A DNA stretch of 37,907 bases, from UHGV virus genome UHGV-1993895. One strand, written 5' to 3'. Below the pieces are notes generated by a model. The model was not told the DNA's origin and did no database searches. It worked only from the letters and a program-made list of their open reading frames with translations. How positions within the stretch are numbered: position 1 is the first letter of the stretch; each line of letters starts with the position of its first letter. Both the position numbers and the translations under genes were made by a program. Below, piece after piece: positions 189 to 5,903 of the stretch. Source of the DNA: a virus.

Positions 189-1112
189 TCAGTAGTTATG
201 TACTGAAGGAGGTAATTCTTTGTTCTTAAGTCTTATCCATGCTGAAAGGTTTGTTGGTCCGTCTGGCTCATTAATATCAACATCTCGTGTATGGTTGATT
301 AAAACATCTCTCGCCATATCGATAATACGGGAGAACTCATAACCGCAGTCATGACATCTGCCGGAATAGTTCGATTGAATTTGTTTTAGCGCCGGATACA
401 ATTCGCGGAATAATGCCTGTGAGCGGTTGGCATAATCCCATAGCCATACAAGGCTGTTTGCTTCTTTTGCAGAAAGCTCGTTGGTTTTCTTCTCTTGTTT
501 GCCAATGAACTCACCTTCAAGCGGAACTCGAGCTGCAAGTGACAGTGCTTCGGTAAACTGCTCCTCACTGATTTCTTTGTATGAACATCCAAAATGGGAT
601 TTCAGTGACGACCACATGGTGATCATCGCCTTAGCCTGTTTTTCCTTTGGCAGAGACTGACCGCGACTCATGACGAGTTGTTTAATGGCTTCCTGCTGTT
701 CAGTGGTGATTTTACCCGGCAACGCCTTTTTAGCTTTGCGTGGGTTAACTACATGACCTTTAGTCCAGTACTCGTATAGCACATCGTCACACTCTTCCTG
801 ATACTGGATTACCTTGTCGCGGATTTCAGGACGGACTTTGTTTGGCTGAATGCTTGAAAGCCAAGCCGCAAACTTACGAAAGGCAAGGCATATCATTAAC
901 TGTTTACCGCCAGCAGAAGGTATTTCGATTTCCGAAATACCTTTGACAAATCTCTGTTTTAATTTAACAAATTGAGCAGCCCAAACCATACCCATGCCTT
1001 CTACAACGGGTTTCATAGGAACGTAAGGTTCATTGTTAATGCTGACCAAAAAGAGATTTGTTCCGTGGAATGGAACGTTGATTGTATGTTCTGCAATTGC
1101 TACACTCGTCAT
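189..1112 (-). CDS. ant: Antirepressor Ant
   Basis: 307-aa ORF; position downstream of arc in an immI-type locus; length and sequence character of P22-type Ant. Confidence 0.8.
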   Translation of the reverse strand: MTSVAIAEHTINVPFHGTNLFLVSINNEPYVPMKPVVEGMGMVWAAQFVKLKQRFVKGISEIEIPSAGGKQLMICLAFRKFAAWLSSIQPNKVRPEIRDKVIQYQEECDDVLYEYWTKGHVVNPRKAKKALPGKITTEQQEAIKQLVMSRGQSLPKEKQAKAMITMWSSLKSHFGCSYKEISEEQFTEALSLAARVPLEGEFIGKQEKKTNELSAKEANSLVWLWDYANRSQALFRELYPALKQIQSNYSGRCHDCGYEFSRIIDMARDVLINHTRDVDINEPDGPTNLSAWIRLKNKELPPSVHNY

Positions 1113-1114
1113 GT

Positions 1115-1186
1115 CGTTAATTCCTATGCGTGGTTTTACGATACCGAAGCCCTGACTGTTACCGCAGTTGGGGCTTCACTGTTTTT
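1115..1186 (+). ncRNA. sar: sar-like antisense sRNA covering the ant translation start (predicted)
   Basis: Plus-strand promoter-like TTGATT-17 nt-TACACT at 1080-1108 inside the first ant codons; imperfect 13-bp hairpin at 1146-1177 followed by TTTTT at 1182-1186; predicted transcript about 70 nt antisense to the ant RBS, as for P22 sar. Confidence 0.4.
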
Positions 1187-1397
1187 GTAAGTCACTGTAG
1201 TTATAAAACCACTGACCACTCATTCTTGCTTTGATTGACTCTACTGAATCACGGCAAGGAATGATTCCACCTGACATCATTCTGATCTCCGTAAATTCAC
1301 CGCTCCTTACCGACTCAATGCCATTAACGTTAACTAAAGATTTACCTCTACCAAGTGCATTCTCATAGCCAATCTCATCAACCTCAATAAACCTCAT
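1176..1397 (-). CDS. Hypothetical 73-aa protein between arc and ant
   Basis: ATG overlaps the arc stop (ATGA); GAGG-type RBS inside the arc 3' end; no recognisable family. Confidence 0.45.
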   Translation of the reverse strand: MRFIEVDEIGYENALGRGKSLVNVNGIESVRSGEFTEIRMMSGGIIPCRDSVESIKARMSGQWFYNYSDLQKQ

Positions 1398-1642: not shown

Positions 1643-1897
1643 ATGGCTAGAGACGATCCGCACTTTAACTTCCGTATGCCTTTGGAAGTAAGAGAAAAAT
1701 TGAAATTAAGAGCAGAGGCTAACGGAAGGTCAATGAACTCTGAGTTATTACAAATCGTTCAGGATGCTCTCTCAAAGCCATCATCAATTGTAGGCTATCG
1801 AGACGAAGCTGAGCGAGTCGCGGATGAGCAATCTGACGTTGTTAAGAAGATGGTCTTTGAAACGCTGAAAAATATTTATAGCAAAAGTAAGTTATAG
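1643..1897 (+). CDS. mnt: Mnt repressor
   Basis: 84-aa protein MARDDPHFNFRMPLEVREKLKLRAEANGRSMNSELLQIV, P22 Mnt-like; divergent from arc-ant. Confidence 0.85.
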   Translation: MARDDPHFNFRMPLEVREKLKLRAEANGRSMNSELLQIVQDALSKPSSIVGYRDEAERVADEQSDVVKKMVFETLKNIYSKSKL

Positions 1898-1946: not shown

Positions 1947-2666
1947 ATGAAAAAAAGCAATGGACTCACATTAAAACTTGACGGAACCACCCCTGGCCAG
2001 CTGTCAATGGCTAAGTTGGTCAAGTATATGTCTGCTCTCGTAGATCTATACGGTTCTGCAGATTCTGTTCACTTCGACTGTGTAAGTGAAGGATCGGCTG
2101 ACTTAAATGCATGGGTCGATAATGATATTTGTTATAACGCTGTCATAGCAAGGGCCTCTCTCTCAGCCAAAGAGAAATCACCCGCGTATCAAAAAATTGT
2201 TAATTTACTGGAACATGATGGTTTTTCAGCGAAACTACTCGGACGAAACCACTCAACCATTATCGCATTCCCGCGAGTAAAAAAGGAGCCAATCCCTTTA
2301 CTCATAACAAAAACATCAGAAGTTCAAGGAAGGCTATACAGTGTTGGCGGAAAAGACAATTCAATACCTGTGCGTATTGAGGGAGCCAACGGCGAAACAT
2401 TCAAGTGCGAGGCAACCCCTGATTTGGCGGCAGCTCTTGGGTCCCATCTATTCAAATATATTAGGGTTAAAGGAGATGGGTGCTGGGAAAAAAAGAACAA
2501 CAAATGGGAGCTAAAGAAACTAAAAATAACTTCATTTGTATTGCTCAAAAAATCATCACTCAAGGATGCTATTAATGCTATCAAGCAAGTTCCTGGAGAT
2601 CAGTGGTCCGAGGAACGCGATGTTGATTCAATCCTTAGGACTCTGAGGAAGATAAATTGCGAGTAA
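1947..2666 (+). CDS. Hypothetical 239-aa protein, first gene of accessory cassette
   Basis: ORF 49 nt downstream of and co-directional with mnt; 10-nt overlap with the following PIN gene; AT-rich by eye; no recognisable domain. Confidence 0.6.
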   Translation: MKKSNGLTLKLDGTTPGQLSMAKLVKYMSALVDLYGSADSVHFDCVSEGSADLNAWVDNDICYNAVIARASLSAKEKSPAYQKIVNLLEHDGFSAKLLGRNHSTIIAFPRVKKEPIPLLITKTSEVQGRLYSVGGKDNSIPVRIEGANGETFKCEATPDLAAALGSHLFKYIRVKGDGCWEKKNNKWELKKLKITSFVLLKKSSLKDAINAIKQVPGDQWSEERDVDSILRTLRKINCE

Positions 2667-3205
2667 TTTTAGATACCAATATTCTGGTATACCTACTATC
2701 AGATATAGAACACGATTATAGATTATCTGACCCTATACTTGGTTCTGAGATTCCAGATGCCAAAAGAAGAGCAGAAGCTCTTGTTGATCGAATAGATAAC
2801 AAGAACGGGACAATCATCGTTCCAACTCCTGTATTGGCGGAGTTTTTAGTTGGAATCCATAAAGATTACCAACAAGAAAAACTGAATGTTATCAAATCGT
2901 TATCGTGCTTCGAAACTGTATCGTTTGATGAGTTGGCTGCTATTGAATGCGCATCGATACCAACATTAAAAGAATTAAGGAAAATTAGCACAGAAGGTAC
3001 AGCAAACAAAATTAAGTTTGACAGACAAATAATAGCAATTGCAAGAGCAATTAATGCTGACGAGGTATGGACTCATGATAAGGGAGTGTTTGAGCGTTGC
3101 AAAAGTCTCAATATTCCTGTGTTCACATTATCATCAATAGAACCAATTCCGGTTCAAAGTCTCATGGAGTTCTTACACGATTCAGACGATCAGAGATTAC
3201 ACTAA
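2657..3205 (+). CDS. PIN-domain (VapC-like) predicted nuclease
   Basis: N-terminus MRVILDTNILVYLL with Asp6, central acidic residues and a C-terminal THD motif fit the PIN fold; 182 aa; translationally coupled to the upstream gene. Confidence 0.6.
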   Translation: MRVILDTNILVYLLSDIEHDYRLSDPILGSEIPDAKRRAEALVDRIDNKNGTIIVPTPVLAEFLVGIHKDYQQEKLNVIKSLSCFETVSFDELAAIECASIPTLKELRKISTEGTANKIKFDRQIIAIARAINADEVWTHDKGVFERCKSLNIPVFTLSSIEPIPVQSLMEFLHDSDDQRLH

Positions 3206-3221
3206 AATATAATTTTTATGC

Positions 3222-3249
3222 ATCCGTGATAATTACATCCGTCACGGAT
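3222..3249. promoter_or_regulatory. Inverted repeat between the PIN gene and the third cassette gene
   Basis: ATCCGTGA ... TCACGGAT arms (8 bp) including a 13-bp palindrome ATCCGTCACGGAT; no T-run. Confidence 0.3.
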
Positions 3250-3332
3250 ACATAAAGCTATAGCCAAAAGTGGACAAACCTTTATCTCACTCCAAACCAT
3301 CTGGTATCCTGCGCAAAACTAAGGAGGTTGGT

Positions 3333-3755
3333 GTGTTTGGTATATTAACGAGAAGCAAGATAAAAAAATTAAGGGCAGAACTCGCCGAAACACAAAAACT
3401 GGCTTCACATTTTTACAAAATGAAATACGACGCTGAAGAGCGTGCATTTGTTGAGTTATGCGATTTATCTATTCGTATGGGAGTAGAGCCAGATGTAGCG
3501 GCAAAAACCCAACAAGGCATTGATATACTTGCAGATGTTGTTTTAAACAGGCAATATGCGTTTTATCTAAACGAGAAGGCCATTCAGATTTACTCTCAAA
3601 TCTTCCTCCTAGAAAAAAGAAGAGGAACTCACGATCGAGAAGAGTGGTTAAATGAAGTTGTTAAAAAATCTGGCTGGGAAGTTGTTTCATCAGAGCTACC
3701 TCTTATTTGTGCTGATTTAATCGAAGAGGCAAAAGAGCGCCTATCCGATGGCTAA
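3333..3755 (+). CDS. Hypothetical soluble protein, third gene of accessory cassette
   Basis: GTG start 5 nt after a strong AAGGAGG RBS (3321-3327); ORF track gives a longer version from 3270; no TM segments, so not SieA-like. Confidence 0.5.
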   Translation: MFGILTRSKIKKLRAELAETQKLASHFYKMKYDAEERAFVELCDLSIRMGVEPDVAAKTQQGIDILADVVLNRQYAFYLNEKAIQIYSQIFLLEKRRGTHDREEWLNEVVKKSGWEVVSSELPLICADLIEEAKERLSDG

Positions 3756-3779
3756 ACGAATCCATCCGTGGATTACTAA

Positions 3780-5903
3780 TTACTCCCGCTCCATTCCGCT
3801 TAGCGATGCCACAATCCCAGCCCTCGCTAAGCGCTGAAACTCTTCGTTTCCGACGGTATCACGTATCGCTTTTACAGCAGCTTTATTTGCCATAAATCTG
3901 CGTTCAGCCGCCGCTAATGCACCATCACTTGCCCCAACCTTAACTGCCTTTGTTGCCTCTTGAACAGCCTTTTCAATAGCGTAACGACCACTGCGGGATG
4001 CAGCTAACTTTTCTATCGTCCCTTTAGCTATAGATCCAGAAACAGCCCCCACAACACCGCCAACAATCCCTCCACCAGTGGTGCCAACAATAGCCCCTGA
4101 TGTTGAATTGCCTATTGCATTGAGAACTGTCATGACAGCTTTTGGCAGTCCTTGCTCAAGAGAGTTAATTGCCGGTATAGAGCGCCCCGTATGCTCTACA
4201 TATCGCAGTGGTCTGGTTGCTGCTCTGGCAAGGTCGCTGTATGCCCTAGCAATCTTACCCATTTCTGGCGAGTGCTTGCTAATGGCAGTAATATTCTGCG
4301 GCGTAAGGATCGACGCTATATGGAATACGCCAGCAGACTCTGATTTACCGCCACGCCCCCCTTGCGATACCGCATCTTGTAATATTGATGCAATTGCTGG
4401 AGATCGCTCAGACTCTGGCAGTGCGCCAATAATCTGATGAAACTTTCCTGTCCCACTTTTTGATGAATTTTGCAAGGCTTTAATACCATCAGTGACTAAC
4501 TGATCAGTTGCAAGGTTTCTAAACGCTGCTTCAGCCTGTTCTTGTGCTGTAAATCTTGCTTTTGACAGATCATTAGCTTTTTGCCAGTCATCAAGAAAAC
4601 CGCCATTTTGAGCCATTATGCGCATATCTTCCGTTGCTGCATCACGAAGCTCCGCCATGCGCCTTGCCGTATTTGCCTCACCAGACCTTATATACTTCTG
4701 CTCAGCGTCAGCAAGTTTACTTCGCCATGCCTTCATGGCATCAAACGTGATTCCTTTTTTACCAGTTTTAGCATAAGCAGATGCAAATTGTTTCATCTCA
4801 GGAGTTAGCGGCATACCAGCCAAAATATCACCCTGAATTGTAGCGTTCAGGTTTGACATTCTGGCCTTTGCGTCAGGCATCGTGGAGCGGACGCTATCCC
4901 ATGCTGCCTTTTCTGAGTTCTTCATTTTATCAATACTTGCTAAAACCCTTTGTTTTATGGCTGCACTTTTTTCTGATGCAGATCCAGCCTCAGCACCAAG
5001 TTCATCAAGTGCTGAGTGGAATTTCGACTGTATTTCACTAAAAGCCCTAGTATGTGCATCCTGAACAATTCCTGGTTCGGATGCCAATATCCCTTCGGCT
5101 TGTGCAATTCCACGACTTCCAGATCGCATTCCTGGTGTTAATGCGTTTATATCAATTCCAGCAGACTCAGCCGCTTTTGCTACATCTTCGGACACATTAG
5201 CGGCCTGACTGGCAATTGACTGACGCCCAGCACCTGACTTTGCCATCCTGGAAACATCATTAGCAGAATTCAGTGCTGCACCACCAAGAGCCTGTGAAAC
5301 CCTTGGCGCAATAACGCGCCCGACACCAGAAAGAACGCCTTGAGCACCAATATTGACACCACCGTTAATGGCAGCATTTTGTGCAAAGTTGCCATCCTGA
5401 TTTGCAGCATCAGCAAGAGAACCTGCAATCATGTTTCCTGCGGAACCGATATCTCCAGCGAGCTTTGCTGGCGCTCCAGCAGCTTTTGCCGCTGTGCCAA
5501 TTGGCAGGAGATACCCACCAATTGTTTCACCGGCTTGCGCGTAAGGGTCTGTCGGTCGATCGACTGGACGATAGACATCATCCAATACTTTTGGCCCACC
5601 AAGCCCATGACTGATTGCATTAATCAGACTTGCGCCACCCTGCAATACGTCAAATGGTATGTTTACCAGACCACGACCAGCCTGTTCTGCAATTTGCCCT
5701 GCACTTTGACCACCTGTGAGCCAATCGCCAGCTTGTTGCATCAATGATGGTTCTTCACGTGCTGGTTCATTATTGGCCTGATTAACTGTTTGTTGCTGAA
5801 CAGCCTGACCAGCAAAATACTCATCAATGGCGGTGCCAATATCTTCGGTGCTCGTACCATCAGGGAAGGTAAATGTCTTACCGTTTGCAGTTACTTTCAT
5901 CAT
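3780..5903 (-). CDS. Ejection (E) protein, P22 gp16-like
   Basis: 707-aa Ala/Gly-rich protein, last gene of the ejection-protein block by synteny. Confidence 0.65.

Follow-up and report, generated by a model that had tools for sequence, protein, structure and literature searches.

We examined positions 1947–3755 of the virus genome UHGV-1993895 (37,907 nucleotides, nt; this whole stretch is referred to as the window), an interval between the repressor gene mnt and a gp16-like ejection gene in a P22-type Escherichia coli prophage, and found that it comprises two independent prophage cargo modules and no single three-gene unit. The first module combines g1 (1947–2666, plus strand), which encodes a protein of 239 amino acids (aa), and a PIN-domain nuclease gene (2657–3205, plus strand; 182 aa), which begins at a TTG codon and overlaps the stop of g1 by 10 nt. 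The second module is g3 (3333–3755, plus strand), which starts with GTG at the sieA position and encodes a soluble, acidic protein of 140 aa (161 aa if the start at 3270 is used). The ribosome-binding site (RBS) of g3, AAGGAGG, occupies positions 3321–3327, 5 nt ahead of the GTG at 3333; RefSeq calls the same start, which in alignments coincides exactly with the start annotated for sieA in P22 and for hkcB in HK620. These three plus-strand open reading frames (ORFs), with their lengths, the 10-nt overlap and the RBS, were all as stated in a first-pass annotation made from the letters of this DNA, and the AT-richness noted there was also recovered (GC content of 0.42 in g1, 0.37 in the PIN gene and 0.39 in g3, versus 0.48 in the gp16-like gene and 0.46 in the entire window). 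All three are real genes: g1 and the PIN gene have homologues with 30–75% identity in several genera, and g3 shows a ratio of nonsynonymous to synonymous change (pN/pS) of ~0.07.

The number of E. coli genomes carrying each gene did not follow the pattern of the three-gene cassette that had been proposed at first. Among 5,426 complete E. coli genomes, g1 and the PIN gene were present in 33, g3 in 30 and all three in 19; 14 genomes contained the g1-PIN pair without g3, and 11 contained g3 without the pair. According to the P22 annotation, orf59a, t_mnt, PsieA and sieA occupy the interval between mnt and the gp16 side in that phage. Homology to P22 spans the promoter region and mnt, stops at the 3' end of mnt, and returns only at ~3298–3339, where alignments with P22, HK620, 19AR1724 and UMNK88 delimited a conserved plus-strand island formed by a leader, the AAGGAGG RBS, the GTG start and the first two codons. 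This island of 36–42 nt (95–97% identity to P22, HK620 and many other P22-like phages, where it lies at the start of sieA or hkcB) was the sole stretch of the three-gene interval with a match in P22-like phages.

Three other E. coli prophages showed where the modules begin and end. The 19AR1724 sequence (NZ_CP195804.1) is identical through the PIN gene, the hairpin that follows it, the island and the GTG, and then immediately continues into a different, hydrophobic ORF of 62 aa. This ORF (L032:4887–5075) lies at the sieA position, has two hydrophobic segments, shares its RBS and GTG start with g3, sieA and hkcB, and carries no RefSeq annotation. UMNK88 matches only from the island into g3 and has other cargo upstream, including a mnt-proximal gene on the opposite strand for a Panacea-domain (PanA antitoxin-type) protein (L033:3176–3625). 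In Ec15103, a gene for a P63C-domain protein (L038:1368–2336; mnt-proximal, opposite strand) adjoins mnt, and the g3 allele is 93% identical. Based on the distribution and on these boundaries, g1 and the PIN gene replace orf59a and t_mnt, while g3 is one allele of the sieA position; thus, the earlier placement in the sieA slot holds for g3 and fails for the pair. The alleles of the sieA position are swapped exactly at the shared RBS and start codon, and the locus shows at base-pair resolution that the P22 immI/sieA region is a two-compartment cargo hotspot.

A single three-component system, with g3 as a required regulator or sensor of g1 and PIN, would account for the adjacency of the genes on one strand and for the 19 complete genomes in which all three occur at 99.5% identity. 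It does not account for the 14 and 11 genomes with one module alone, for 19AR1724, where the shared start codon leads into a small hydrophobic ORF other than g3, or for UMNK88 and Ec15103, where g3 is paired with other mnt-proximal cargo; furthermore, no g3 homologue was seen beside the g1-PIN pair in any other genus among the loci examined. We consider this the least probable of the explanations weighed here.

The PIN protein (RefSeq WP_001263856.1) matched Pfam PF01850 with E=4.1e-10 and 40.8 bits (gathering score cut-off, 23.6), as the first reading of the sequence had anticipated, and the model matched is the VapC-type PF01850 and not a FEN-type one. Residues D6, E62, D122 and D141 were invariant in an alignment of 30 homologues with 30–75% identity to the query, and all four acidic residues were also kept in the copy of phage Ostro; this conservation fits an active nuclease. 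The catalytic Glu is found at position 62, and not near 40–44, owing to an insertion of ~20 residues. The scores against NCBIfam VapC models were below the cut-offs (NF047863, 27.1 vs 140; TIGR00028, 19.9 vs 73.6; NF047959, 14.8 vs 80), and the PIN profile retrieved no solved structure from the PDB, VapC included, at E<=0.01. In PHROGs, both g1 and the PIN protein matched families of unknown function only.

For g1, no Pfam (E<=1), NCBIfam or PADLOC family was detected, in agreement with its first description as a protein of no recognisable family. A profile search nevertheless placed it in a large family, with 1,591 representatives of 50%-identity clusters at E<=1e-3 and 329 at E<=1e-30, nearly all of ~240 aa. 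The protein is basic (isoelectric point, pI, of 9.15), and its AlphaFold2 model (mean predicted local distance difference test score, pLDDT, of 85) was divided into three parts: an N-terminal alpha/beta domain, ferredoxin/RRM-like (residues 1–110); a beta-rich domain with an SSB-type OB-fold by structural similarity (residues 118–199; pI 9.4); and a C-terminal helical tail of lower confidence (residues 205–237). Neither the model nor the Pfam search indicated an RHH, AbrB, PHD or HTH domain. If the pair acts in defence, g1 could plausibly sense phage nucleic acid directly. Searching the g1 profile against PDB sequences returned only short matches to 'YSVGG' motifs of the kelch-like type, which we rejected as chance.

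We found that g1 and the PIN gene form an obligate, translationally coupled pair. A PIN ORF overlapped or abutted g1 in 23 out of 23 genome loci with a full g1 match in the g1-profile search (in Pantoea, Buttiauxella, Hafnia, Pseudomonas, Marinobacter and Halomonas), and likewise in Pseudomonas and Pectobacterium loci, in three distant family members and in the temperate Pseudomonas phage Ostro, whose copies had 28–29% identity to the profile and hhalign probabilities of 99.9% and 99.1%. Decay was observed at three loci, with the PIN gene split in one (L015) and truncated in another (L022), and both genes damaged in the third (L028). The Pantoea latae AS1 contig NZ_MWUE01000022.1 carries two diverged copies of the pair ~12 kb apart (L008 and L011), whose g1 genes are 70% and 57% identical to the query. 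We also noted a metagenome contig (ERZ25039527; L036:3935–5376) whose g1 homologue of 319 aa is continued, without a change of frame, by sequence matching residues 1 to ~59 of the PIN profile; the remainder of PIN lies in other frames. This could be a g1-PIN fusion broken by frameshifts or an assembly error.

A gene for an S24/CI-type repressor was located directly upstream of the pair and in the same direction in six contexts (L004/L005, L011, L019, L024, L027 and phage Ostro); in P. latae, it is the L011 copy that lies directly behind such an S24/HTH repressor gene. In the window, the corresponding position behind a repressor gene is that behind mnt. This arrangement resembles that of phage lambda, where the two-gene exclusion module rexA-rexB lies directly 3' of the repressor gene cI, is co-transcribed with it and is expressed in the lysogen; the likeness, which extends to RexAB-type systems in other prophages, is one of position and regulation only, with no sequence or domain relation between RexAB and the pair. 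Other g1-PIN loci adjoined type I restriction-modification, Wadjet JetA/B or SoFic genes, or were situated in islands containing insertion sequences or Fic genes. The repressor genes and defence genes next to the pair favour a defence role. In sequenced phage isolates, the interval of g1, PIN and g3 was absent, except for the 36–42-nt island and for the pair itself, of which the Pseudomonas phages Ostro and Pacha have distant copies.

Our preferred explanation, to which we assign a probability of roughly 0.5, is that g1 and PIN constitute a toxin-antitoxin (TA)-like sensor/effector module expressed in the lysogen. The pair would most likely be co-transcribed with mnt, and hence be expressed in the lysogen. 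The basic g1 protein, with its OB-fold and RRM-like domains, would bind the PIN ribonuclease through the C-terminal helical tail and keep it inactive. During infection by a second phage, nucleic acid made by that phage (single-stranded DNA intermediates of replication or recombination, or RNA) or a phage protein would titrate or remodel g1, and the released PIN would cleave RNA (tRNA or mRNA) and abort the infection. In addition to the genomic context, the strict pairing and the invariant active site, the low GC content of g1 and the PIN gene is in favour of this explanation, as is the presence of other conflict-type cargo (the Panacea-domain and P63C-domain proteins) in the same slot of other E. 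coli prophages. What stands from the interpretation first proposed is thus a PIN protein with a non-VapB partner and a plausible defence-type role, in a unit of two genes and not of three.

Several observations weigh against a sensor/effector module of this kind. Many of the g1-PIN loci lie outside prophages and outside any obvious defence island, and RefSeq names many of the PIN homologues 'VapC family toxin'. An ordinary type II TA pair would typically show the same gene order and translational coupling. The invariant residues of the g1 OB domain include the acidic D137, E145, E150 and E155, which would suit a surface for protein-protein contacts no less than nucleic-acid binding. Transcription of the pair by read-through from Pmnt is inferred solely from the lack of a recognisable terminator. 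PADLOC-DB v2 contained no matching model for g1 or PIN, nor for g3, at E<=1. Finally, we found no experiment on the g1-PIN family in the literature.

The main alternative takes the pair for an ordinary addiction module of the type II TA class (VapBC-like), with an unusually large antitoxin; such a module would keep the prophage or genomic island from being lost, without excluding other phages. As in VapBC, the PIN effector has its four acidic residues intact and follows an upstream, translationally coupled partner that overlaps its start, the classic antitoxin-toxin order, and the C-terminal tail of g1 could plausibly be a toxin-binding segment. The weak NCBIfam VapC matches and the RefSeq names of the homologues point in the same direction, as do the chromosomal sites of the pair outside prophages, and the split or truncated PIN genes beside an intact g1 (L015 and L022) represent an order of decay that a TA pair tolerates. 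On the other hand, g1 differs from VapB in its length of 239 aa (~3x VapB), in its RRM-like domain and OB-fold, and in having no RHH, AbrB, PHD or HTH DNA-binding domain, which agrees with the early remark that it is not a classical VapB. The PIN protein differs from VapC in its ~20-residue insertion and in scores that are far under the NCBIfam cut-offs, and the repeated position in prophage repressor operons and beside defence genes points to a role in conflict between phages. We regard a pure addiction module as less probable than the sensor/effector module, while noting that TA and defence roles are not mutually exclusive.

The sensor/effector explanation has functional precedents. The best of them is DS-5 (working ID PN12) of E. 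coli, which combines a 166-aa DUF5830/AcrIF4-like protein with a PIN ribonuclease and gives 10^5–10^6-fold protection against Bas60; defence is abolished by D7A or E44A in PIN, and deletion of the partner gene results in loss of defence with no toxicity, which is not TA behaviour (DeWeirdt et al., Science 2026, PMC13092281). Like g1-PIN, DS-5 consists of two genes, with an uncharacterised non-antitoxin partner and a PIN protein. The partner is of 166 aa in DS-5 and 239 aa here, and the catalytic Glu is E44 in DS-5 and E62 here; by partner length and Glu position alone, this suggests different subfamilies. DUF5830 (PF19148) was not matched by g1 in the Pfam scan at E<=1, though the DS-5 assignment came from the more sensitive HHpred, with a probability of 0.91 (PMC13092281). 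A second validated defence pair, HEC-03, consists of an ABC ATPase and a VapC-like PIN protein (Payne et al. 2024, bioRxiv 10.1101/2024.01.29.577857). It shares with g1-PIN the two genes, the PIN effector and the non-antitoxin partner, and differs in that its partner is an ABC ATPase and that it is embedded in Hma systems, whereas g1 has no ATPase domain. With DS-5 and HEC-03 validated, defence systems that combine a PIN effector with a partner other than an antitoxin are an established kind.

The exact PIN protein of the window has already been flagged computationally as a defence gene, independently of our analysis. In Table S10 of DefensePredictor, WP_001263856.1 is listed as 'Predicted novel defense gene', and the score column that follows its identifier reads 6.81; the protein is not among the 42 validated systems of that study (PMC13092281). 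Full-text literature searches for the three RefSeq accessions gave no hits; Kieffer et al. (integrons) make no mention of PIN, and no description of an OB-fold partner for a PIN defence effector was found in the accessible literature.

The predicted SSB-like OB-fold of g1 also bears on a different explanation, in which the pair serves the DNA or RNA metabolism of the phage itself (an SSB-like protein with a FEN-type or processing nuclease) or counter-defence. Flap endonucleases carry PIN-like domains, which would suit such a role. The pair, however, belongs to the immunity region, where it is transcribed co-directionally with the repressor gene, and not to a replication or recombination module, and the PIN protein matched the VapC-type and not the FEN-type model. 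Furthermore, just 33 of the 5,426 genomes of E. coli carry the pair, and sequenced isolates of P22-like phages lack it altogether, so that it is dispensable; it is also present in non-phage chromosomal islands. A metabolic or counter-defence role consequently appears very unlikely.

If the pair is a defence system, it adds a widespread PIN-effector family with an SSB-like OB-fold partner, and this partner family has no Pfam model. Its repeated placement in prophage repressor operons would then be a clear case of exclusion cargo expressed in the lysogen, with a layout like that of lambda rexAB. We can also conceive, as a speculative extension that we hold to be doubtful, that the g1 family represents an unrecognised class of infection sensors, which would either recognise single-stranded nucleic acid of the phage directly or act as competitors or mimics of SSB at intermediates of phage replication or recombination, and so license the PIN ribonuclease; this RexAB-like exclusion would then have been taken into the repressor operons of temperate phages in two or more orders of Gammaproteobacteria. 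Among the carriers of the locus are clinical E. coli isolates, of which at least one has the label O25b:H4-ST131; this makes the pair relevant to host range in phage therapy.

Regarding the second module, g3 is an orphan gene that has evolved under purifying selection. Its only homologues in a set of 5.8 billion clustered proteins were near-identical E. coli copies, and no match was obtained in Pfam, NCBIfam, PADLOC, PHROGs or PDB. The comparison with the 93%-identical allele, on which the pN/pS given above is based, showed that 21 of the 27 changed codons were synonymous. With P22 SieA and HK620 HkcB, g3 has in common the leader, the RBS, the GTG start and the site between the immI region and gene 16. 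There is no sequence similarity to either protein (BLASTP E=14 for SieA), and while SieA has strongly hydrophobic segments (45 windows of 19 residues with a mean hydropathy >1.6), g3 is acidic and reaches a maximum of 0.75 with no hydrophobic segment, so that its first description as soluble was right. Its position and the known precedents suggest that g3 may be another exclusion or defence factor expressed in the lysogen.

The surroundings of the two modules correspond to a complete P22-type immI region. The mnt gene (1643–1897, plus strand) is directly upstream of g1 and in the same direction, encodes an Arc/Mnt-family lysogeny-maintenance repressor (Pfam Arc, E=5.7e-27; Repressor_Mnt, E=4.8e-13) and has ~84–85% DNA identity to P22 mnt. 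According to the promoter scan, Pmnt (plus strand, TTGAGA-17-TATCAT) and Pant (minus strand, TTGACA-17-TATATT) are arranged face to face with the operator region at 1587–1620, a stretch almost the same in sequence as the Pmnt/Pant/operator region annotated in P22. Transcription of mnt, g1 and the PIN gene probably starts at Pmnt. In the 49-nt gap between mnt and g1, the promoter/terminator scan and RNA folding recovered no terminator-like site and no stable hairpin, which leaves the early suggestion of lysogen expression through Pmnt plausible. On the other side, the gp16-like ejection gene (3780–5903, minus strand) was identified from the ORF list and a profile match.

We detected a strong stem-loop at 3214–3257, after the PIN gene (−20.4 kcal/mol, z=−5.45; 0 out of 200 shuffles as stable). 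On the plus strand it is not followed by a U-tract, and on the minus strand it has an A/T-rich tail. It moves together with g1-PIN, being identical in 19AR1724 and missing upstream of g3 in UMNK88, and could serve to terminate transcription in part, to affect RNA stability or to mark the module boundary. A weak sigma-70-like site (TTCAGA-16-TAAAAT, 9/12 matches; 3181–3208, plus strand) at the PIN stop codon is a possible g3 promoter, in a region where promoter sites are no more numerous than in shuffled sequence; it and read-through are the two candidates for g3 transcription. As between mnt and g1, no intrinsic terminator was detected after g3 by the terminator scan and RNA folding. The hairpin after PIN, ATCCGTGA...TCACGGAT, shares an ATCCGTG-type motif with a short inverted repeat after g3 (3760–3776), AATCCAtccgTGGATT, and this motif may be a recurring boundary element of cargo modules. 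Repeat scans of the three-gene interval returned merely short repeats at chance level.

The remaining genes of the immI region are ant (189–1112, minus strand), as given by the ORF list, and arc, which lies between an extra ORF of 73 aa and the promoters. This extra ORF (1176–1397, minus strand; phrog_11805, function unknown) is between arc and ant and overlaps the arc stop by 4 nt; its counterpart in related E. coli prophages is annotated as a hypothetical protein, and P22 has no gene at this position, with arc directly followed by ant and sar. The sar antisense RNA was located at 1114–1180 on the plus strand (Rfam RF00262, 77.7 bits) and was the only RNA family in the Rfam scan; sar lies ahead of the start of ant, which means that this E. 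coli prophage has kept the antisense control of ant known from P22. Finally, in the prophage of Ecol_AZ146 (L001:10537–11706), we identified a frameshifted transposase gene of the IS3-like insertion sequence ISEc52 among the ejection genes, beside a truncated DNA-transfer gene; this prophage is thus probably defective, yet its mnt, g1, PIN and g3 genes are intact.

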